64,000 nucleotides of DNA. Origin: Candidatus Eiseniibacteriota bacterium. Its GTDB lineage: Bacteria; Eisenbacteria; RBG-16-71-46. Position numbers and translations under genes: made by a program. The stretch lies in the NCBI GenBank assembly GCA_041483195.1, contig JBGPFC010000005.1:6679-70678 (forward strand). Direction: 5' to 3'. The notes beneath the pieces were generated by a model. The model was not told where the DNA came from. It did not search any database and was given only the letters and a program-made list of their open reading frames with translations. Of the stretch, positions 41,872 through 55,364 are shown piece after piece (position 1 is the first letter of the stretch; each line of letters starts with the position of its first letter).

Positions 41872-42068
41872 TAATCCCTGCCGTGCTCGTGATGCCACAA
41901 CGTTCTTGAACCAACACTTTCGTTCAGGGTGATCCGGTGGCCGGCGACGTCGAGCCGCGGCTCCCGCGAGGGAACGCGGAGGACCGACCCGGTCGTAAGG
42001 AGCACCCACCTGGCTCGCCAGGTCTCAAGAACGAGCGGGCACACGGCAATTCGGCGGGGAGTTGTTCC
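41872..42068 (+). ncRNA. ssrS: candidate 6S RNA (SsrS) or other structured ncRNA in the zapA-rny intergenic region
   Basis: The 278-nt non-coding gap shows long-range complementarity. 41880-85 GCCGTG pairs with 42042-47 CACGGC. 41901-12 CGTTCTTGAACC pairs with 42021-33. The two helices are separated by an asymmetric 15-nt bubble on the 5' strand, with internal hairpins such as CCGCG-agggaa-CGCGG. The motif TTGAACCAA...GTTCAGGG resembles a segment of E. coli 6S RNA, and zapA-ssrS synteny is classic. Confidence 0.4.
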
Positions 42069-42118
42069 CTGCCTGCGGCCCCGGGGCGTTCGCGCTCCGG
42101 GGCGCGGGGGAGATCGGA

Positions 42119-43681
42119 ATGAACAACCTCACCTGGATCGGCGGCATCGCCATCGGTGCCGTCTTGGCGTTTGCGGCGGGCTACCTGCTCCGCGCGCGGC
42201 TGGGACGTCTCAAGCTGGACAGCGCCGAGCGGCAGGCGCGCGGACTGCTCGAGCAGGCGGCGCGCGACGCCGAGGGCGTGAAGCGCAACGCGGTGCTCGA
42301 AGGCCGCGAGGAGGCGCTGCGGCACAAGCAGCAGGTCGAGCGCGAGACCCAGGCGGCGCGCGGCACCCAGCTCGCGGCCGAACGGGCGTTCCAGGAGAAG
42401 GAAGCGGCCTTCAATCGGCGCGTCGAGCTGATCGAGAAGAAGGACCGCGACCAGAAGCGCGTCGAGCAGGAGATCGCAGCGCGCGAGCAGGCGGTGTCCC
42501 GCCGCAACGGCGATCTCGACCGGCTGATCGGCGAGCAGACCACGCGCCTCGAGAAGATCGCGGGGCTCAGCGCGGACGAGGCGCGGGCGCAACTGCTCGC
42601 GAGCATCGAGAGCGAGGCGCGGGCGGAGGCCTCGCGGCTGGTCGCCGAGGTGCGCGACAGCGCGCAGCGCAACGCGGAGCGTGAGGCGCGAAAGATCATC
42701 ACGCTCGCCATCCAGCGCTTCGCCGCCGATCACGCCTCCGAATCGTCGGTGTCCGTGGTCCATCTGCCGAGCGACGACATGAAGGGCCGCATCATCGGTC
42801 GCGAGGGCCGCAACATCCGCTCGTTCGAGATCATCACCGGGGTGGACGTCATCATCGACGACACGCCGGAGGCCGTGATCCTCTCGGGCTTCGACCCGGT
42901 GCGCCGCGAGATCGCGCGGCTGGCCCTCGAGCGGCTGGTCGCCGACGGCCGGATCCACCCCGCGCGCATCGAGGAGGTCGTGGCCAAGGTGCGGACCGAG
43001 GTCGAGAACAAGATCCGCGAGCTGGGCGAGATGGCCTGCCTCGAGGTCGGCGTTCACGGTATCCACGCGGAGCTGCAGAACACCCTGGGCCGGCTCCACT
43101 ACCGCACGTCGTACGGGCAGAACATCCTGCGCCACTCGATCGAGGTCGCGCACCTCGCGGGGATGATGGCGGCCGAGATCGGCATGGACCAGAAGATGGC
43201 GAAGCGCGGCGGGCTGATGCACGACATCGGCAAGGCGATCGACCACGACCACGAGGGGACGCATCCGGCGCTCGGCATGGAGCTGGCCGCCCGTTTCGGC
43301 GAGCCCCAGCCGGTGCTCGAGGCGATCGGCTATCACCACGACGACTACTCGGGCGGCAGCCTGTGGCCGGTGCTGATCTCGGCGGCCGACGCGATCTCGG
43401 GCGCTCGCCCCGGCGCCCGGCGCGAGAGCCTCGAGATCTACATCAAGCGCCTCGAGGCGCTCGAGAAGATCGCGAACGGTTTCCCGGGCGTCGAAAAGTC
43501 GTACGCGATCCAGGCCGGGCGCGAAGTGCGCATCATGGTCGAGCACGGCCGGGTGGACGATGCGCGCGCCCAGGGGCTCGCGAGCGAGATCGCGCGCCGG
43601 ATCGAGAAGGAGCTCCAGTATCCGGGCCAGATCCGCGTGACCGTGATCCGCGAAACGCGCGCCGTGGACTACGCGAAGTAG
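42119..43681 (+). CDS. rny: ribonuclease Y
   Basis: N-terminal TM helix, a coiled-coil, a KH domain ([15 protein letters not shown]) and an HD domain ([17 protein letters not shown]...LMHDIGKA). Confidence 0.92.
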
Positions 43682-43687
43682 GCGCGC

Positions 43688-45373
43688 GTGCTCAATCTCC
43701 TCTTCATCGCCGACGTCATCGGCTCGCCGGGCCGCGAGGTGGTCCGCGCGCTGCTGCCCGGGCTGCGCCGCAGGCACGACATCCACCTGGTGATCTGCAA
43801 CGCCGAGAACTCGGCGGCCGGATTCGGAGTCACCCGCGACGTGGCGCGCGAGCTGTTCGACTCCGGCATCGACGTGCTCACCGGCGGCAACCATCTGTGG
43901 GACAAGAAGGACTCGATGGACTACCTCGCCGATGAGCCGCGACTGGTGAGGCCCGCGAATCTTCCTCCGGGCACGCCGGGCGAGGGCTATCGCGTGTTCA
44001 AGGCGGCCGACGGCACGCCGGTGGCGGTGGTGAATCTCCTGGGCCGCGTCTTCATGAAAGAGGCGGACTGTCCGTTCCGGGCGATGGACCGGGTGCTCGC
44101 CGCGCTCAAGGATCAGTGCAAGGTCGTCGTCGTCGACTTCCACGCCGAGACCACCGCCGAGAAGGCGGCGATGGGCTGGCACCTCGACGGCCGCGCGAGC
44201 GCCGTGCTCGGCACCCACACCCACGTCCAGACCGCGGATGATCGCGTGCTGCCGAACGGCACGGCGTTCATCTGCGACGCGGGCATGACGGGCGGATTCG
44301 AATCGGTGATCGGGATGGACCGTCACGCCGCGCTGCGGCGGTTTCTGACGCTGCTGCCCGAGCGTCTCACGCCGGCGGGCGGCGATCCGCGCTTCAACGG
44401 CGTCGTGTTGCGGATCGATCCGGCGACCGGCCGCGCGCACTCGATCGAACGCCTCCAGATCCCGCACGCGCCCCCGCCGAAGGACGGCGCCCGCCGCCTG
44501 AGCGGAGAAGAACCGGCGATCGCGGTGCGGTACGCGGCGCGGCTCGAGGTCGAGCAGCTGATCACGGCCGGGGTCACGCCCGCGCTGGCGCTGATCTCGG
44601 TGGGCGAGGATCCCGCATCGAGGATCTACCTCAAGCGCAAGGCCGAGGCCTGCGCCGAGGTGGGGATCGCGGTCCGCCGCGTCTCGATCGAGGCCGGCGC
44701 CGACACCGCGGGCGTGATCGAGCGGGTGCGCGCGCTGGGCGCCAATCCGGACGTGCACGGCATCCTGATCCAGCTCCCGCTCGCTCCGCCCCTGGACCCG
44801 CGGGCAGTGCTCGAAGCCATCCCGCCCGGCAAGGACGTCGATGGATTCCATCCGGTCAACGCCGGCGCGCTCGCGCTCGGGCTGCCGGGATTCGTGCCGG
44901 CGACGCCGCGCGGCATCCTCGAGCTGCTGCGCTACCACCAGATCCCGCTCGCCGGAAAACACGCGGTGGTGCTGGGCCGCAGCAACATCGTGGGGCGGCC
45001 GCTCGCGACGCTGTTGTCGAGCCGCGGCGTCGACATGACGGTCACGCTCGGTCACAGCGCGAGCGGCCTCGCGCTCCCCGCGTTGGCGCGCGAGGCCGAC
45101 GTGCTGGTGGCCGCGATCGGCCGGCCCGAGTTCGTCACCGCGGACTGGGTGAAACCCGGCGCGACCGTGGTGGACGTGGGCATGCATCGCGTGCCGTCGC
45201 CGGACGATCGCCGCGGCACTCGCCTCACCGGCGACGTCGACGCGGCTGCGGTCGCGCGGGTCGCGGGGGCGCTCACCCCGGTCCCGGGCGGAGTGGGGCC
45301 CATGACGGTCGCGATGGTGGTCGCGAACACCGTGCTGGCCGCACAGCGTCAGGCCGCCGCCGCGAAGGTGTGA
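43688..45373 (+). CDS. folD: fusion protein: YmdB-like metallophosphoesterase (aa 1 to about 262) fused to bifunctional methylene-THF dehydrogenase/cyclohydrolase FolD (aa about 280-561)
   Basis: GTG start. The N-terminal half aligns along its whole length with B. subtilis YmdB (ADVIGSPGR, NAENSAAGFG, GGNHLWDKK, DFHAETTAEK, GTHTHVQTAD, DAGMTG). After a linker HAPPPKDGARRLSGEEP with no stop and no internal ribosome-binding site or start, a complete FolD follows (ISVGEDPASRIYLKRK, DVDGFHPVNAG, GRSNIVGRP, TPVPGGVGPMTVAMV). Confidence 0.85.
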   Translation: MLNLLFIADVIGSPGREVVRALLPGLRRRHDIHLVICNAENSAAGFGVTRDVARELFDSGIDVLTGGNHLWDKKDSMDYLADEPRLVRPANLPPGTPGEGYRVFKAADGTPVAVVNLLGRVFMKEADCPFRAMDRVLAALKDQCKVVVVDFHAETTAEKAAMGWHLDGRASAVLGTHTHVQTADDRVLPNGTAFICDAGMTGGFESVIGMDRHAALRRFLTLLPERLTPAGGDPRFNGVVLRIDPATGRAHSIERLQIPHAPPPKDGARRLSGEEPAIAVRYAARLEVEQLITAGVTPALALISVGEDPASRIYLKRKAEACAEVGIAVRRVSIEAGADTAGVIERVRALGANPDVHGILIQLPLAPPLDPRAVLEAIPPGKDVDGFHPVNAGALALGLPGFVPATPRGILELLRYHQIPLAGKHAVVLGRSNIVGRPLATLLSSRGVDMTVTLGHSASGLALPALAREADVLVAAIGRPEFVTADWVKPGATVVDVGMHRVPSPDDRRGTRLTGDVDAAAVARVAGALTPVPGGVGPMTVAMVVANTVLAAQRQAAAAKV

Positions 45374-45981
45374 GGGCTGCGCACGATTCGCAGGAGGTCG
45401 CCGTGGCGAAGCTGATCCGCCGCATACTCGACGCGCCGCCGCGCGCACGCTCGCGTGAGGCGGCGCGCTTCGTGTGGCAGCTCGACGACCAGAGCCGCCG
45501 CCTGCTGCTCGACGTGCGGGGCGCATCGCCCGAGGAGCTGGAGTGGCAGCCCGCGCCCGGCATGAACACGATCGGCATGCTGCTGCTCCACATCGCGCTC
45601 ACCGAGATCGCGTGGGTGCGGATCGGGTTGTGCGGCGCGACCGAATACCACGCGCACGGCGTGATCCGCGCGCCGTTCGACCAGAGCGGCGTTCCGCTTC
45701 CGCCGGATGGACGTCTGCCCGCGCAGCTCGCGGGGAAGAACCTCGGCTTCTTCCGGCGAAAGCTCGCCGTCGCCCGCGCGCACACCAGGCGCGTGGTCGC
45801 GCCGCTTCGCGACCGCGATCTCGGCGCGCGCTTCCGGGTGCCGGCGTTCTGGTCCCGCGAAACCCGCTTCGAGGGAAACGCGCGCTGGATGCTGTATCAC
45901 GTGCTCGAGCACGAAGCCGGGCACTACGGCCAGATCAACCTCCTGCGTCATCTGTACGCGGCGTCGCGTCGCGGACGCTGA
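45370..45981 (+). CDS. DinB/DUF664-like metal-binding protein
   Basis: Its GTG overlaps the folD stop as GTGA. HIALTEIAW...HVLEHEAGHYGQINLL matches the DinB_2 His pattern. The exact start is uncertain. Confidence 0.6.
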   Translation: MRAAHDSQEVAVAKLIRRILDAPPRARSREAARFVWQLDDQSRRLLLDVRGASPEELEWQPAPGMNTIGMLLLHIALTEIAWVRIGLCGATEYHAHGVIRAPFDQSGVPLPPDGRLPAQLAGKNLGFFRRKLAVARAHTRRVVAPLRDRDLGARFRVPAFWSRETRFEGNARWMLYHVLEHEAGHYGQINLLRHLYAASRRGR

Positions 45982-45985
45982 ACCC

Positions 45986-47353
45986 ATGTCGCTCGCCCCG
46001 GCTCCGGAGACCATTCTCAGCGTCGCGGCGCTGACGCGCCTCATCAAGGACACGCTGGCCGGCGCGTTCCCCGCGGTATGGGTGAAGGGCGAGCTCTCGG
46101 GGTTCAAGCGTTCCGATCGCGGGCATCTCTACTTCGCGCTCAAGGACGGCAAGGACGCCGTGCTCGATTGCGTGATGTGGAGCCGGACCGCTGCGCGTCT
46201 CGGGTTCGAGCCGCGCGACGGCGACGCGATCGAGGCGTTCGGCGCCGTGACCGTCTACGAGCCGCGCGGACGCTACCAGCTGGTGGTCGACGAGATGCGC
46301 GCGAGCGGGCTGGGCGCGCTGCTGGTCGCGCTCGAGGAGCTCAAGCAGAAGCTCGCGGCCGAGGGGCTCTTCGAAGCCGCGCGCAAGAAGCCGCTGCCGC
46401 GTTACCCCGCCCGGATCGGGATCGTCACCTCGCCGGTCGGAGCGGCGGTGCGCGACCTGGTGAAGGTCCTGCGCGCGCGCTGGCCATCGATCGCGATCGT
46501 GCTCGCCCCGGTGCGGGTGCAGGGGGAGGGCGCGGCGGAAGAGATCGCGGCGGCCATCGAGCGCTTCAACCGTTACGCGAGGGTGGACCTGCTGGTGGTG
46601 GGCCGCGGCGGCGGCTCCCTCGAGGATCTGTGGGCGTTCAACGAGGAGCGCGTGGTGCGCGCGGTCGCGGCCTCCGCGATCCCGGTGATCGCGGCGGTGG
46701 GGCACGAGGTGGACTGGACGCTCACCGATCTCGCCGCCGACCTCCGCGCCGCGACGCCATCGAACGCTGGCGAGATCGCCGTGCGCGATCGCGCCGACGT
46801 GATCCACCGGGTGGAGGCGCTCGCCGCGCGCTCCGGGCGCGCGATGCGCCAGGGCCTCGCCGATCGGCGCGCGCGCCTCAGGCGGCTCGTCGATCAGTAC
46901 GGATTCCGCCGCCAGCGCGACGCGCTCGGGTTCCTGCAGCAGCGGATCGACCACGCGCTCGAGCGCATCGGCCCCGCGATCCGCGCACGGCTGCGCGCCG
47001 CCGCCGAGTGGCTCCGGCGCGTGAAGCAGAGCTACGGCCTGCGCGAGTGGCCCCGCACGCTCTCCGAGCGGCGGGCGCGCATCGGCGAGCGGCGCTCGGC
47101 GCTCACCGCGCGCCTGGTGGCCGCCATGCATGGGCGCCGCACCCTGCTCGCCGGGTACCGGGACCGGCTCCGCGCGCTCTCGCCCCGGCTGGTTCTCGAA
47201 CGGGGCTTTTGCATCGCGCGGGCCGCGGACGGTACCCTGCTGCGCGCGGCCGAGGCGCTCGCGGTCGGCGAGCGCGTGTCGCTGGAGTTCGCGCGCGGGG
47301 AAGCGGACGCGCGCATCGAGGCGATCCGTCCGGGAGGAACACATGGCAGCTGA
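45986..47353 (+). CDS. xseA: exodeoxyribonuclease VII large subunit
   Basis: LSVAALTRLIKDTLAGAFPAVWVKGELS...YFALKD (OB fold), then GIVTSPVGAAVRDL and GRGGGSLEDLWAFN. Confidence 0.9.
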   Translation: MSLAPAPETILSVAALTRLIKDTLAGAFPAVWVKGELSGFKRSDRGHLYFALKDGKDAVLDCVMWSRTAARLGFEPRDGDAIEAFGAVTVYEPRGRYQLVVDEMRASGLGALLVALEELKQKLAAEGLFEAARKKPLPRYPARIGIVTSPVGAAVRDLVKVLRARWPSIAIVLAPVRVQGEGAAEEIAAAIERFNRYARVDLLVVGRGGGSLEDLWAFNEERVVRAVAASAIPVIAAVGHEVDWTLTDLAADLRAATPSNAGEIAVRDRADVIHRVEALAARSGRAMRQGLADRRARLRRLVDQYGFRRQRDALGFLQQRIDHALERIGPAIRARLRAAAEWLRRVKQSYGLREWPRTLSERRARIGERRSALTARLVAAMHGRRTLLAGYRDRLRALSPRLVLERGFCIARAADGTLLRAAEALAVGERVSLEFARGEADARIEAIRPGGTHGS

Positions 47354-47654
47354 GAACGAGGCCGCGCAGGCCGGCGAGGCGGGAAGCGTCGAGGGGCTCA
47401 CCTTCGAGGAGGCGATGGACCGTCTCGAGAGCATCGTCGAGGAGCTGGAGGGCGGCGCGCTGACGCTCGAGCAATCGATCGCGCGATACGAGATGGGCGT
47501 CAAGCTCTCGCAGCGTCTCACCCAGACCCTGGATCAGGCGGAGAAGAAGATCGAGAAGCTGGTCGAGGGCGATGACGAAGCGCCGGCCACCCAACCGATG
47601 GAGCTCGAGCTCAAGCATCCGGAGCCCGGGTCCGAGGGCGAGCTTCCGTTTTGA
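47342..47654 (+). CDS. xseB: exodeoxyribonuclease VII small subunit
   Basis: GGAGG ribosome-binding site. LTFEEAMDRLESIVEELEGGALTLEQSIARYEMGVKLSQ. It overlaps the xseA 3' end by 12 nt. Confidence 0.88.
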
Positions 47655-48628
47655 GACGCCCCGCCCGGAGCCGCGCGCTCCGCGCGGGTTCGCGGCGCGC
47701 GGCCCGCGCGGGCGCCAGCTCCCGGGGCGTGCCCCGCCCGCCCGCGACCCGCGATGCGCTCGACCGGCGGCGGCGCGCGTTCGAGCGCTACTTCGACCGG
47801 GCGATCCGCGCGCGCTGCGGCGCGCCCGGAACGCTCGGCCGCGCGATCCGCTACGCCGCGCTCTCGCCCGGAAAGCGCCTGCGCCCGCTGCTGGTGCTCG
47901 CGGCCTGCGAGGCGGTCGGGGGGAGATGGCGCAACGCGCTCCCGGCCGCGGCCGCCGTGGAATGCGTGCACGCGTTCTCGCTGGTCCACGACGACCTGCC
48001 CGCGATGGACGACGACGACTACCGGCGCGGGCGCCTGACGACCCACCGCAAGTTCGGAGAGGCGATCGGGATTCTGGCCGGCGACGCGCTGGCCGCGTTC
48101 GCTTTCGAGGAGCTGACCCGCCTCGATCGTGGCGGCGTCTCCGCGTCCCGCGTGGTCGCAGCTTCGCGCCTGCTCGCGCACGCGAGCGGGGGAGCGCAGC
48201 TGATCGGGGGCCAGGCGCTCGACATCGCCGGCGAGCGGCGGCCGGCGGGCCGGGCCGCGGTGCGCGCGATCCACGAGCGCAAGACCGGCGCGTTGTTCGG
48301 AGCCTCGCTGGCGCTGGGCGCGCTCGCCGGCGGCGCGCCGCCGCGCGAGGTGCGGGCGCTCGAGCGCGCCGGCCGCGCGCTCGGCCTCGCGTTCCAGATC
48401 CACGACGACCTGTTGAACGCGGGCTCGACGCTCGCGCGACTGGGGAAGCGGGCCGGCACCGACGCCGCCCGCGGCAAGGCGACCTATCCGCGGGCGGTCG
48501 GCGACGAGCGCGCGCGGCGCGACATGGCCCGGCTGCTCGGCCGCGTGCGCTCGCAGGTCGCGCGGCGCGGGGCGCGTGCCGCGCAGCTCACGCGGCTGAT
48601 CGAAGCAGTCGCGGCGCGCGAGCGCTGA
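47651..48628 (+). CDS. ispA: polyprenyl diphosphate synthase (geranyl/farnesyl diphosphate synthase)
   Basis: GKRLRPLLVLAACEAVGG, the FARM motif LVHDDLPAMDDDDYRRG and the SARM motif FQIHDDLLN. TTG start overlapping the xseB stop (TTGA); the start codon is uncertain. Confidence 0.85.
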   Translation: MRRPARSRALRAGSRRAARAGASSRGVPRPPATRDALDRRRRAFERYFDRAIRARCGAPGTLGRAIRYAALSPGKRLRPLLVLAACEAVGGRWRNALPAAAAVECVHAFSLVHDDLPAMDDDDYRRGRLTTHRKFGEAIGILAGDALAAFAFEELTRLDRGGVSASRVVAASRLLAHASGGAQLIGGQALDIAGERRPAGRAAVRAIHERKTGALFGASLALGALAGGAPPREVRALERAGRALGLAFQIHDDLLNAGSTLARLGKRAGTDAARGKATYPRAVGDERARRDMARLLGRVRSQVARRGARAAQLTRLIEAVAARER

Positions 48629-50438: not shown

Positions 50439-50900
50439 ATGGGACGGACGAACCTCATTTCGGAGGCCGCGATCACGGAATCGTTCTGGCTCGCCCTCAG
50501 CGTCGGTTTCCTGGTCCAGGGCTACAAGGGATTTCGCGACTTCTTCGCGACCCGCCGCCTGAATCTGCGCCGCTTCGTGCAGACCGGCGGGATGCCCAGC
50601 TCGCACGCGGCCTCGGTGTCCGCGCTGACGACCATGGTCGGCCTGCGCGAGGGTTTCCGCTGCACGCTGTTCGGGGCGACGCTGTTTTTCAGCCTGATCG
50701 TCATGTATGATGCCGCCGGTTTGCGCCGCGCGGCGGGACGGCAGGCGGCCGTGCTGAACCGCCTGATCGACCAGCACTTCAAGCATTCGGAAGCCGAGAC
50801 CCAGCGCCTGATGGAGTTGCTCGGCCACACTCCCTTCGAGGTCCTCGTCGGCGCGCTGCTCGGCGTGGCCAGCGCCCTGCTCTGGGACCGGGTCCACTGA
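50439..50900 (+). CDS. divergent PAP2-family membrane protein (YuiD-like)
   Basis: TGGMPSSHAASVSALTTMVGL...VMYDAAGLRRAAGRQAAVLN aligns with B. subtilis YuiD. It overlaps the dxs start (TGATG). Confidence 0.75.
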   Translation: MGRTNLISEAAITESFWLALSVGFLVQGYKGFRDFFATRRLNLRRFVQTGGMPSSHAASVSALTTMVGLREGFRCTLFGATLFFSLIVMYDAAGLRRAAGRQAAVLNRLIDQHFKHSEAETQRLMELLGHTPFEVLVGALLGVASALLWDRVH

Positions 50901-52792
50901 TGAGTCTGCTCGAACGCATCCATTCCCCGGCCGATCTCAAGACGCTCACGCGTCCCGAGCTCGACCAGCTCGCGACCGAGATCCGGCACACCATCATTCA
51001 GACCGTGGCGCGCCGCGCGGGGCATCTCGCGCCCAACCTGGGCGTGGTCGAGCTGTCGATCGCGCTCCATCGCGTGTTCGATTCGCCTCGCGACAAGATC
51101 ATCTGGGACGTTGGGCACCAGTCCTATCCCCACAAGCTGCTGACCGGGCGTTTCGAACGGTTCGACTCGCTGCGCAGCCTCGGCGGCCTCGCCGGCTACC
51201 CGAGCCGGAGCGAGAGCGAACACGATCCGTTCGGCACCTGCCACGGAAGCACTTCGCTCTCCGCGGCGCTCGGCTTCGCGGTCGCGCGCGATCTGCGCGG
51301 CGAGAAGAACCACGTGATCGCCGTGATCGGGGACGGCGCGCTCACCGGAGGCATGGCCTACGAGGGACTCAACAACATCGGAGAGCTCGGCAGGCGCGTG
51401 ATCGTGATTCTCAACGACAACGAGTGGAGCATCTCGCCCAACGTCGGAGCGATCTCGCGCTACCTCACCAAGCTCACCACCAGCCGCGTGTACCGCGCGT
51501 TCGAGCGCGATGTCTACGAGCTGATCGGCAAGCTGCCGCGGCTCGGCAAGAAGGCGCAGGAGGCCGCGCGGCGCGTGAAGGAGGGGCTCCAGAACCTGGT
51601 GGTCCCGGGCGTGCTCTTCGAGGAGATGGGCCTCAAGTACTTCGGGCCGATCGACGGCCACAACCTCGACGTGCTGGAGGAGACGCTCTCCGATCTCCGG
51701 CGCTTCGAGGGGCCGGTGCTGCTGCACGTCGTGACCACCAAGGGCAAGGGCTACCAGCCGGCCGAGCGCGACGCCGGCACCTTCCACGGCGTGGGGGTGT
51801 TCGATCCCGAGACCGGCACAGCCTCGAAGAGCACCAGGAAGACCTACACCCACGTGTTCGGAGAGACCGCGCTCGAGATCGCGGAGAAGGTTCCGAACGT
51901 GGTCGCGGTCACCGCCGCCATGACCGACAACACCGGGCTCAAGCCGTTCGCGAAGCAGTTCCCGGATCGCTTCTTCGACGCGGGCATGGCCGAGGAGCAC
52001 GCGGTCACGTTCTCGGCCGGACTCGCGGCGGGCGGGCTCATCCCGATCACGGCGATCTACTCGACCTTCCTCCAGCGCGGCTTCGACCAGATCATCCACG
52101 ACGTCGCTGTGCAGAACCTGCACGTGGTGCTGGCGGTGGATCGCGCGGGGCTGGTGGGCGAGGACGGCGCGCCGCAGCACGGGGCGTTCGACGTCGGATT
52201 CCTGCGGATGATCCCTGGCACCGTTGTCATGCAGCCGCGCAACGGGGAGGAGCTGCGCGACATGCTGTGGACCGCGGTCTCCCACCGCGGCGGACCGATC
52301 GCGGTGCGCTACCCGCGCGCGAACATCCCGGAGGACGCGATGCCGAAACGCGAGCCGCGCGTGCTCGCGCTCGGGGTGAGCGAGCAGCTGCGCGCCGGGG
52401 GCGACGTGGCGATCCTCGCGCTCGGGACCATGGTGGCTCCTGCGCTGGCCGCGGCTGAAACGCTGGCGGCGGCCGGGGTGTCGGCCACCGTGGTCAACGC
52501 GCGCTTCGTGGCGCCGCTCGACGAACGCGCCATCTCGGGCCTCGCGCGGTCGGTGGGGCGCATCATCACCGTCGAAGAGAACGTGCCGATGGGCGGATTC
52601 GGGAGCGCGGTGCACGAGTGCCTCGACCGTCACGGCCTCTCGGCGACGCCCATGCTGCGCATCGCGCTCCCCGAGACCTTCGTGACGCACGGCAAGCGCG
52701 ACGAGCTGCTCGCGCGCGTCGGGCTCGACGCGGCCGGCATCGCGACGCGCGCGCTCGACTGGATCAAGGTCACCCAGCGCCAGTACACATGA
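50900..52792 (+). CDS. dxs: 1-deoxy-D-xylulose-5-phosphate synthase
   Basis: MSLLERIHSPADLKTL, GHLAPNLGVVELSIALH and the TPP-binding GDGALTGGMAYEGLNN. Confidence 0.93.
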   Translation: MSLLERIHSPADLKTLTRPELDQLATEIRHTIIQTVARRAGHLAPNLGVVELSIALHRVFDSPRDKIIWDVGHQSYPHKLLTGRFERFDSLRSLGGLAGYPSRSESEHDPFGTCHGSTSLSAALGFAVARDLRGEKNHVIAVIGDGALTGGMAYEGLNNIGELGRRVIVILNDNEWSISPNVGAISRYLTKLTTSRVYRAFERDVYELIGKLPRLGKKAQEAARRVKEGLQNLVVPGVLFEEMGLKYFGPIDGHNLDVLEETLSDLRRFEGPVLLHVVTTKGKGYQPAERDAGTFHGVGVFDPETGTASKSTRKTYTHVFGETALEIAEKVPNVVAVTAAMTDNTGLKPFAKQFPDRFFDAGMAEEHAVTFSAGLAAGGLIPITAIYSTFLQRGFDQIIHDVAVQNLHVVLAVDRAGLVGEDGAPQHGAFDVGFLRMIPGTVVMQPRNGEELRDMLWTAVSHRGGPIAVRYPRANIPEDAMPKREPRVLALGVSEQLRAGGDVAILALGTMVAPALAAAETLAAAGVSATVVNARFVAPLDERAISGLARSVGRIITVEENVPMGGFGSAVHECLDRHGLSATPMLRIALPETFVTHGKRDELLARVGLDAAGIATRALDWIKVTQRQYT

Positions 52793-53669: not shown

Positions 53670-55364
53670 GTGCTCGAACGCCTGCGCATCCGCGATCTCG
53701 CGCTGCTCGACGAGGCCGAGGTCGGCTTCGGCCCCGGACTCAACGTGGTCACGGGCGAGACCGGCGCTGGCAAGTCGCTGCTCGTCCAGGCGGTGAGCCT
53801 GCTGGTCGGCGGACGCGCGGACGGAGAAGCGGTGCGCGATGGCGCGCCGGCGGCGGTGGTCGAAGGCGAGTTCCGGCTGTCAGGCGAACACGCGCGCCGC
53901 GCCGGCGCGCTGCTCGCGGAATGGGGCCTCGAGTTCGACGGGGAATCGCTGATCGTGCGCCGCGAGGTGCAGCCGGGCGGCCGGAGCCGGGCGACGGTCA
54001 ATCAGTCCGCGATCACGCAGAGCGCGCTCCGCCGTCTCGGCGAGATCCTGCTCGACATTCATGGACAGCACGAGCACCAGAGCCTGCTGCGCGAGGGCGC
54101 GGCGCTGATCACGCTCGATCGTCTAGCGTCGCTCGATCCGGAGCGGGCGCGATACGCGGAGGCGCTCGCGGCGTTCCGCGAGGCGCAGGGCGAGCACGAT
54201 CGGCTGGTCTCCTCGCTCGCGACCTACGCCGAGCGCCGCGACTATCTCTCCGCCGCTGCGCGCGAACTGGACGAGGCGCGGCTGCGGGAAGGGGAGGACG
54301 AGGAGCTGCGGCACGAGGCGGCCCGGCTCGCGCACGCGGACCGGCTGCGCGCGCTGGCGGCGCAGGCGCTCGAGCGCCTCTCCGAAGCCGACGGCGCGGC
54401 GGTGGAGTCGCTGGGGCAGGCGCAACGCGCGCTCGAGCAGGCGGCCGCGCTCGACTCCAGCCTCGAGCCGATGCTCGAGCCGTTGCGCGAGGCCGCGTTC
54501 GCGGCCGGCGAGACGGCACGCGCGCTGGCCGACTACGCCTCGCGGCTCGAAGCCGATCCGGCCGCGCTCGAATCGATCGAGGCGCGGCGCGATCTCTACG
54601 CGCGGCTCACGCGCAAGTACCGACGCGCGATCGGCGAGCTCATCCACTGGCGCGAAGAGCTCGCGCTCGAGCTCGCGTATGGGGAAGACGCGGAGGGCGC
54701 GCTGGAGCGGGCGCGCCACAAATGCGAAAGCGCCGAATCCGAGGCGCGCGCGCTCGCGAAGCTCCTCTCCGCCCGCCGCGAGCGGGCCGCCGCCGAATGG
54801 AGCGCGAGCCTCACGCGCGAGCTCAAGCCGCTCGGGTTCCAGCACGCGCGCATCGCCTTCGACGTGAAGCCGTCGGAGGACGGTGGCCTCACCGCGAACG
54901 GGCTCGACGAGGTGAGCCTGAGCTTCGGGGCGAACCCGGGCGAGCCGGCGCGAGCGCTCGAGCGCATCGTATCCGGGGGCGAGCTGTCGCGGGTCATGCT
55001 CGCCTTGAAGACAGCGCTGGAAACCCAAGACCGCGTTGACCTTCTGCTCTTCGATGAAGTAGATTCCGGCATCGGCGGTGCGGTGGCCCAGGCGGTCGGA
55101 GAGCGCCTCCGGCGGCTGTCCCGGCACCGCCAGATCATTTGCGTGACCCACCTTCCCATGATCGCCGCCCTCGCCACCCATCATCTCGGAGTCACCAAGC
55201 GCGCCCTCGCGGGCCGCACCGTCGCGCGCATCGCCGCGCTCGACCGGGGCGCCCGGGTGGAAGAGCTGGCCCGCATGCTCGCCGGAGACCGCGTCACCGA
55301 GACCACCCGCCGCCAGGCGCGTGAGCTGCTCGACGAGACTCCGCAGCGGTCCGCCGCGCGATGA
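53670..55364 (+). CDS. recN: DNA repair protein RecN
   Basis: GTG start. MLERLRIRDLALLDEAEVGFGPGLNVVTGETGAGKS (Walker A), long coiled-coils, and a C-terminal FDEVDSGIGG. Confidence 0.9.
   Translation: MLERLRIRDLALLDEAEVGFGPGLNVVTGETGAGKSLLVQAVSLLVGGRADGEAVRDGAPAAVVEGEFRLSGEHARRAGALLAEWGLEFDGESLIVRREVQPGGRSRATVNQSAITQSALRRLGEILLDIHGQHEHQSLLREGAALITLDRLASLDPERARYAEALAAFREAQGEHDRLVSSLATYAERRDYLSAAARELDEARLREGEDEELRHEAARLAHADRLRALAAQALERLSEADGAAVESLGQAQRALEQAAALDSSLEPMLEPLREAAFAAGETARALADYASRLEADPAALESIEARRDLYARLTRKYRRAIGELIHWREELALELAYGEDAEGALERARHKCESAESEARALAKLLSARRERAAAEWSASLTRELKPLGFQHARIAFDVKPSEDGGLTANGLDEVSLSFGANPGEPARALERIVSGGELSRVMLALKTALETQDRVDLLLFDEVDSGIGGAVAQAVGERLRRLSRHRQIICVTHLPMIAALATHHLGVTKRALAGRTVARIAALDRGARVEELARMLAGDRVTETTRRQARELLDETPQRSAAR

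Follow-up and report, generated by a model that had tools for sequence, protein, structure and literature searches.

The stretch of DNA analyzed here (64,000 nucleotides of contig JBGPFC010000005.1, hereafter the window) carries a string of genes in the order infC-rpmI-rplT-pheS-pheT-zapA-6S RNA-rny-[ymdB::folD]-xseA-xseB-ispA-DUF212-dxs-nadK-recN, which is shared with a relative at 70% identity, and in the window a DinB-like gene precedes xseA. The features relevant to this work are collected in Table 1. The domains of the RNase Y were read on the called gene (L001, 8432-9994) and mapped to the window with an offset of 33687. The stop codon of rny is located 6 nt before the GTG start codon of an open reading frame (ORF) that encodes a YmdB-type metallophosphoesterase joined to FolD. 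Upstream of rny, the 6S RNA gene matched the Rfam model over its full length (1-187) and scored 67.5 bits, above the gathering score of 46.4, and a 6S RNA gene occupies the same position in L002, L004, L006, L007, and L086. The DinB_2/MST-family gene is a lineage-specific insertion that neither L002 nor L086 has at this position, and the gene order at recN is the same in L002. The rny gene is linked to ymdB in the window and in L002, L004, L007, and L018, and ymdB of Bacillus subtilis is likewise encoded immediately downstream of rny; folD of Bacillus is encoded directly upstream of xseA-xseB-ispA-dxs, again as in the window. The preliminary description of this DNA had placed the fusion where folD lies in a conserved folD-xseA-xseB-ispA-dxs-...-recN synteny. 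This assignment is correct, and the fusion is positioned at the seam between that synteny and the rny-ymdB neighborhood.

Table 1. Features of the ymdB::folD locus, with positions counted from the first nucleotide of the window
Feature	Position	Strand	Evidence
6S (SsrS) RNA gene, between zapA and rny	41872..42064	+	Rfam RF00013
rny (RNase Y), 520 aa	42119..43681	+	RNase_Y_N, KH_1, HD domains
ymdB::folD fusion ORF	43688..45373	+	ORF, domain calls, recurrence in relatives
YmdB / TIGR00282 metallophosphoesterase module, aa 5-256	43700..44455	+	PF13277, TIGR00282, 4B2O match
Interdomain linker, aa 257-267, 'PHAPPPKDG' core	44456..44488	+	alignment entropy, pLDDT, no in-frame start
FolD module (methylene-THF dehydrogenase / methenyl-THF cyclohydrolase), aa 268-555	44489..45352	+	PF00763, PF02882, structure matches
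DinB_2/MST-family gene, between fusion and xseA	45403..45981	+	gene call, domain
xseA (exonuclease VII large subunit)	45986..47353	+	gene call, domain
xseB (exonuclease VII small subunit)	47343..47654	+	Exonuc_VII_S on ORF 47130-47654; start from L001 gene call
ispA-like polyprenyl synthetase	47651..48628	+	domain
dxs	50900..52792	+	domain
recN	53670..55364	+	SMC_N, AAA_23

The fusion ORF begins with GTG and comprises 561 codons plus a stop codon, with no internal stop. As the preliminary description had it, this is a single in-frame ORF; by Pfam both modules are complete, and YmdB-FolD is a true in-frame gene fusion: YmdB is missing only its stop codon and FolD only its initiator region, with approximately 11 linker residues between them. 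A protein identical to the window fusion is encoded on the NCBI metagenome-assembled genome (MAG) GCA_041490895.1, and no second, standalone copy of either folD or ymdB is present within the window.

The N-terminal half matched the entire Pfam YmdB profile (PF13277, profile positions 1-253 of 253) with an E-value of 9e-105 and 349.9 bits against a cutoff of 27, and the fusion protein scored 288.2 bits with the NCBIfam model TIGR00282, above the curated threshold of 254.15. Residues 3-258 of the fusion align to residues 2-256 of B. subtilis YmdB (4B2O; E-value 2.4e-83), and full-length homology extends to the YmdB relatives DR1281 of Deinococcus (1T70) and TTHA0625 of Thermus (2CV9). Residues were assigned to their counterparts in reference enzymes using alignments to solved YmdB and FolD structures together with general knowledge of the two families. 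The D, EN, GNH, DFHAE, and GTHTH metal-binding motifs of B. subtilis YmdB are all found in the window fusion. The metal ligands of the B. subtilis enzyme are presumably D8, E39, N40, N67, H150, H175, and H177 (numbering from Diethmaier et al. 2014), and in the alignment to 4B2O each position of the binuclear metal site has its counterpart in the window protein (D9, E40, N41, N68, H152, H177, and H179). In contrast to B. subtilis YmdB, the window protein runs on into FolD with no intervening stop codon, and its host is a high-GC candidate-phylum bacterium rather than a Firmicute. The Firmicute framing of the preliminary description does not fit this host, whose named relatives are Candidatus Eisenbacteria, although the identification of the N-terminal half as YmdB-type holds; the role of B. 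subtilis YmdB in biofilm formation and SinR regulation (PMC6123443) is not transferable to the window fusion.

The C-terminal half contains both FolD domains in the expected order and above threshold, THF_DHG_CYH (PF00763) at aa 272-385 with 96.3 bits (profile positions 2-115 of 115) and THF_DHG_CYH_C (PF02882) at aa 388-555 with 196.5 bits (profile positions 1-159 of 160). The NCBIfam FolD models align over aa 268-559 of the fusion. None of these models scored above its cutoff, the best being NF010785 with 307 against 396 bits and the 24 other listed models also falling below. Because the PRK models are fitted to specific lineages, we attribute these scores to phylogenetic distance and not to lost family features. 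Among solved structures, the FolD half matched 8WFC with an E-value of 3.5e-75 and also matched the E. coli (1B0A) and human (1A4I) enzymes. Compared with bacterial FolD (1B0A, 8WFC, and 6V6Y) and with the dehydrogenase/cyclohydrolase domain of eukaryotic MTHFD1 and MTHFD2, the window FolD has both domains complete and retains the YxxxK, Q, KDVDGFHP, GRSxIVG, and PVPGGVGP motifs, in which we take the catalytic YxxxK lysine, Gln, and Asp to correspond to human K56, Q100, and D125. Unlike these proteins, it has no start codon of its own and its N-terminus is tethered to a phosphodiesterase. Fusions of FolD to other enzymes are known, as in the eukaryotic C1-THF synthase, in which a FolD-type unit is fused to formyl-THF synthetase, and the known partners are enzymes of one-carbon and purine metabolism.

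The fusion was sought in other genomes at the protein level. A whole-protein search returned, as its best 120 matches, proteins of 553-572 amino acids, each with all three Pfam domains and with 70-83% identity to the window protein. These matches originate from JGI, ENA, NCBI, and Logan assemblies and are encoded on contigs of up to 967 kb. A second search, which started from a divergent fragment across the junction (P0122), added about 60 more sequences and uncovered a deeper lineage with the same architecture, whose members are 559-587 amino acids in length and share 52-57% identity with the window protein. Pooled over both searches, at least 180 full-length fusion clusters (90% identity) from independent assemblies were obtained, and the DNA of six fusion loci from independent assemblies contains no internal stops. 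Such recurrence in related genomes cannot be due to chance, and close orthologues are fused rather than separate genes. Four apparently unfused close relatives (P0123, P0124, P0126, and P0133) were rejected as frameshifted or truncated fragments of fusions. In the deeper lineage (L086), the interval from zapA to the fusion contains no rny, and the start of the fusion follows the 6S RNA gene at a distance of 83 nt.

When 1.84 billion representatives (50% identity) were scanned exhaustively with HMMER, a single full-length fusion (P0121) was recovered along with a small number of fragments that span the junction. The other top matches were standalone YmdB (~260 amino acids), standalone FolD (~290 amino acids), and FolD with unrelated partners; several longer FolD proteins of other architecture were among the 1.84 billion representatives, and none of them has a metallophosphoesterase as partner. 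No fusion was found outside the Eisenbacteria-named group in this search, and the organism names attached to the fusion proteins and loci are exclusively Candidatus Eisenbacteria (phylum Candidatus Eiseniibacteriota). A genome scan was also performed with KDVDGFHP and PVPGGVGP; as these are universal FolD motifs, the single Eisenbacteria genome among the matches listed is not a census. Literature searches (in which 'folD' also matches 'fold') returned no description of a YmdB-FolD fusion, and the pairing appears to be undescribed. It is a new domain architecture made from two well-known enzymes and is widespread within one candidate phylum.

Any open junction in a single MAG raises the question of whether an indel or a miscalled base has removed the ymdB stop codon, and the frameshifts visible in relatives P0123, P0124, P0126, and P0133 illustrate that indels do occur in MAGs, although nothing specific to the window points in this direction. 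The junction is open in all of the independent full-length clusters, which number at least 180 and derive from JGI, ENA, NCBI, and Logan assemblies, including contigs of 0.45-3.6 Mb, and the linkers of these proteins differ by in-frame indels; an error would neither recur nor keep the frame. The view that the junction is no sequencing error is thereby upheld, and an artefact of sequencing or assembly, for which we see virtually no probability left, is effectively refuted.

To compare the constraint on the parts of the protein, 96 fusion sequences drawn from the main clade and the deep lineage were aligned, and identities were measured to the window protein. The YmdB half is 75% identical in the main clade and 53% identical in the deep lineage, with corresponding values of 74% and 57% for the FolD half and 33% and 11% for the linker. 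Column entropy is 1.90 bits in the linker against 0.85 and 0.92 bits in the two domains, and the linker ranges from 10 to 20 residues across the 96 fusions, varying by in-frame indels. Conserved domains on either side of a variable linker are the pattern expected from selection on an open reading frame and not from sequencing error. The linker had been characterized as short and Pro-rich; this is true of the window protein ('PHAPPPKDG'), but the richness in Pro is not conserved among its relatives.

Within the same alignment, E40, N41, H69, H152, H177, and H179 of the YmdB half are invariant (96/96), N68 is Asn in 95 of the 96 sequences, and D9 is Asp in 92, the other four having N-terminal gaps because their gene calls are short at the N-terminus. 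In the FolD half, Y314, K318, Q362, D385, G430-R431-S432, and P533-G534-G535 are invariant in all 96 fusions. A decaying fusion, in which one half, for example YmdB, is an inactive relic carried on an essential FolD, is contradicted by the similar identity and column entropy of the two halves. Wherever a sequence covers them, the metal ligands and catalytic residues do not vary, and the YmdB profile is matched over its full length. No support for such decay was found, and we regard it as extremely improbable. The retained residues suggest instead that the phosphodiesterase and the dehydrogenase/cyclohydrolase activities are both probably preserved. An AlphaFold2 model calculated on the 96-sequence alignment (mean pLDDT 90, pTM 0.57, linker block ~68) predicts two well-folded modules whose relative orientation is not fixed.

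The question of whether this ORF gives rise to one protein or two was addressed by searching for internal starts. In the window, no in-frame ATG, GTG, or TTG codon is present between codons 241 and 280. Codon 280 itself is a GTG; the 20 nt preceding it contain no Shine-Dalgarno-like motif, and initiation at this codon would drop the first strand of FolD. An AGGAGG sequence precedes the GTG of the DinB_2/MST gene downstream of the fusion, indicating that the genome of the window does use Shine-Dalgarno sites. In the other fusion loci, candidate internal starts lack both positional conservation and a Shine-Dalgarno motif at a useful distance. The preliminary description had noted neither an internal start nor a ribosome-binding site between the halves, and this observation holds for the window; among the fusion loci examined, no internal start is conserved.

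Two NCBI records do begin a 298-residue 'FolD' at a GTG or ATG within the linker (P0281, HKA23986.1, and P0285, HEV8479856.1), and a flexible linker is in principle open to proteases. These records could be taken to mean that FolD is made separately, by internal initiation or by proteolysis of the linker, so that one ORF yields two proteins and the fusion has no consequence at the protein level. However, both loci align with the fusion protein P0276 as one uninterrupted in-frame segment, and the 90% clusters that contain P0281 and P0285 also hold full-length members of 556 and 558 amino acids. The two entries were therefore rejected as standalone FolD proteins of the deep lineage and reassigned as intact fusion ORFs whose genes had been called from an internal start. 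Considering also the lack of start codons and of Shine-Dalgarno-like motifs described above, we judge the production of two separate proteins to be highly unlikely.

Having established the fusion, we examined homologous loci in which the two genes are adjacent but separate. Among the matches listed, such pairs occur in Bacteroidota (L005 and L026), Rokubacteria/Methylomirabilia (L006 and L007), Calditrichales (L018), and Gemmatimonadetes (L021). None of these matches is an independent fusion, as ORF analysis identified two separate genes in each, compared with one ORF in the window. The gene order is the same as in the window, often as rny-ymdB-folD with an upstream 6S RNA. At the junction, L005 has TGA-CCA-ATG in the same frame, stop and start overlap as TTGA in L006, the genes are 17 nt apart in L007, and they overlap by ~20 nt in L018, with longer gaps in L021 (113 nt) and L026 (325 nt). 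With junctions this tight, a single substitution or 1-nt indel would suffice to fuse the genes, and the unfused adjacent pairs likely represent the pre-fusion state. The earlier suggestion that an old neighborhood became fused is thus plausible and receives direct support from four other phyla in which ymdB and folD are adjacent but unfused.

In a neighbor-joining (NJ) tree of FolD halves, every fusion fell into a single clade (197 of 200 replicates) that also contains one standalone FolD, P0157, which joins the deep lineage in 200 of 200. The corresponding tree of YmdB halves, at 61 of 200, gives no clear support to the fusion having arisen once. The locus encoding P0157 (L088) consists of zapA, a 366-bp spacer, a standalone folD, and xseA, with no ymdB, and no 6S RNA was detected at the Rfam gathering score in the 366-bp spacer. 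Consequently, not every member of the wider clade carries the fusion. Parsimony does not discriminate between a single fusion with later loss of the YmdB part and two independent fusion events.

Taken together, we consider it highly probable that the locus contains a real gene fusion kept within one lineage, in which loss of a stop codon joined coupled neighbors into one polypeptide with two independent modules. In the ancestor, ymdB and folD would have been tightly packed and probably translationally coupled within a (zapA-6S-rny)-ymdB-folD-xseA-xseB-ispA-dxs string, and a point substitution or 1-nt indel could have removed the ymdB stop codon to leave one ORF. The product would presumably be synthesized in full length as a single polypeptide of ~560 amino acids. 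Its N-terminal part would be a binuclear-metal phosphodiesterase of the YmdB type, characterized homologues of which act on 2',3'-cyclic nucleotides, and its C-terminal part an NADP-dependent methylene-THF dehydrogenase/methenyl-THF cyclohydrolase. The two modules may fold and act independently on a short flexible tether, such that the main outcome of the fusion would be obligatory 1:1 co-expression and not new chemistry. A mixed oligomer is conceivable, since both parent enzymes oligomerize. The fusion resembles other operon-neighbor ('Rosetta stone') gene fusions in that co-oriented neighbors were joined by stop loss with the modules kept and the linker variable; it differs from the generic examples in that its particular pairing appears to be undescribed in the literature searched.

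A more far-reaching reading is that YmdB and FolD take part in one process, such as RNA turnover or nucleotide salvage linked to 10-formyl-THF for purines or fMet, and that the fusion was selected for co-regulation, co-localization, or allosteric cross-talk. Consistent with this idea, ymdB and folD are neighbors in at least five phyla and their stop and start codons often overlap, suggesting translational coupling; retention of the fusion over divergence down to ~52% identity also fits. Where rny is gone from the neighborhood in the deep lineage, ymdB remains with folD and not with rny. The position of the locus downstream of a 6S RNA gene is also reminiscent of E. coli ssrS-ygfA, in which ygfA encodes a folate enzyme. 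Against such coupling, the AlphaFold model (pTM 0.57) has no confident interdomain interface, neither the sequence nor the length of the linker is constrained, and folD works alone in a close relative (L088). Fusion of operon neighbors by stop loss is common and may be neutral, and no literature joining YmdB and FolD was found. Moreover, YmdB still has no known physiological substrate, although it is widely distributed and has strong phenotypes in B. subtilis (PMC6123443). On balance, adaptive coupling seems unlikely, and we favor the joining of neighbors by stop loss.

A specific form of this idea would read the fusion, together with the adjacency of ymdB and folD downstream of 6S RNA and RNase Y in multiple phyla, as a functional partnership that ties YmdB activity to one-carbon and 10-formyl-THF metabolism, with RNA decay products or 6S RNA growth-phase signaling connected to the supply of purines or fMet-tRNA. 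We consider such a partnership rather unlikely. A link between folate metabolism and RNase Y/YmdB, as proposed in the preliminary description, is a conjecture drawn from the fusion, and in the deeper lineage rny is not adjacent. If the partnership were true, it would offer a handle on the in vivo substrate and the role of the widespread YmdB family, and a fusion that has been stable for so long, combined with conserved FolD adjacency, provides a weak guilt-by-association lead on YmdB function. Otherwise, this is an ordinary neighbor-gene fusion of two well-understood enzyme folds, and unless coupling is demonstrated it is a modest evolutionary curiosity.

The architecture also has a practical consequence for annotation. 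NCBI records treat these proteins inconsistently, in that the whole ORF may be named only 'TIGR00282 family metallophosphoesterase' or a FolD may be called from just the C-terminal 298 residues, and automated metabolic reconstructions of Eisenbacteria MAGs can miss folD or ymdB as a result.

The interval between zapA and rny was found to hold a 6S (SsrS) RNA gene in several phyla; the gene is present in the window and in L002, L004, L006, L007 and L086 (see table). In the deep lineage, the second group of fusions, the interval between zapA and the fusion is devoid of rny, whereas the window encodes rny there, and the 6S RNA gene is located just 83 nt upstream of ymdB::folD. This arrangement resembles that of E. 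coli, zapA-ssrS-ygfA with ygfA encoding 5-formyl-THF cyclo-ligase, in that the gene for a folate enzyme follows the 6S RNA.

Features in the window and compared loci
Feature	Locus	Coordinates	Strand	Remark
6S (SsrS) RNA gene	window	41872-42064	+	between zapA and rny
6S (SsrS) RNA gene	L002	8114-8302
6S (SsrS) RNA gene	L004	3733-3923
6S (SsrS) RNA gene	L006	2030-2213
6S (SsrS) RNA gene	L007	4116-4300
6S (SsrS) RNA gene	L086	7727-7917
rny	window	42119-43681
zapA-to-fusion interval, no rny	L086/L087	7658-8000
zapA, 366-bp spacer, standalone folD, xseA	L088	1-2630		ENA ERZ27248036
DinB_2/mycothiol-S-transferase-family gene	window	45403-45981	+	between fusion and xseA
1200-codon ORF	window	41924-45526	-	antisense across rny and fusion
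Intact fusion ORF, C-terminal part only called	L084	5221-6897		NCBI GCA_036003365.1
Intact fusion ORF, C-terminal part only called	L085	665-2335		NCBI GCA_035259005.1

The metagenome that contains L086, a locus of the deep lineage, also contains L088, which encodes a standalone FolD that clusters with the deep fusion lineage (200/200 support in the neighbor-joining tree of FolD halves). The gene string at L088, zapA-spacer-folD-xseA, is without ymdB, and an Rfam search of the spacer returned no 6S RNA at the gathering score. Either the YmdB module was lost secondarily from this locus, or the layout is a sign of two independent fusions. Elsewhere, a protein identical to the fusion in the window is encoded on a 14.5 kb NCBI contig (JBGPTZ010000035.1); the window, at 64 kb, must hence derive from a longer assembly, either of that organism or of a near-identical one. 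The genes are unfused in L007, from a Methylomirabilia MAG whose accession prefix, JBGPTW, is close to JBGPTZ.

The DinB_2-family gene has a perfect AGGAGG Shine-Dalgarno site at its GTG start. Because the relatives L002 and L086 have no such gene between the fusion and xseA, it was categorized as an insertion specific to this lineage, the gene order around it being conserved. The long antisense ORF is probably a consequence of the high GC content here and not a gene, since rny and the fusion, both well supported, lie entirely within its span on the other strand, and many other long ORFs listed for the window likewise overlap real genes in other frames.

The annotation of the fusion varies among NCBI records. 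In those for L084 and L085, the "bifunctional FolD" call covers only the C-terminal 298 amino acids, beginning at an internal GTG or ATG, which leaves the YmdB half without a protein call. Other records conceal the FolD part by naming the whole ORF "TIGR00282 family metallophosphoesterase". One or the other enzyme could thus be missed when pathways are reconstructed from these MAGs.
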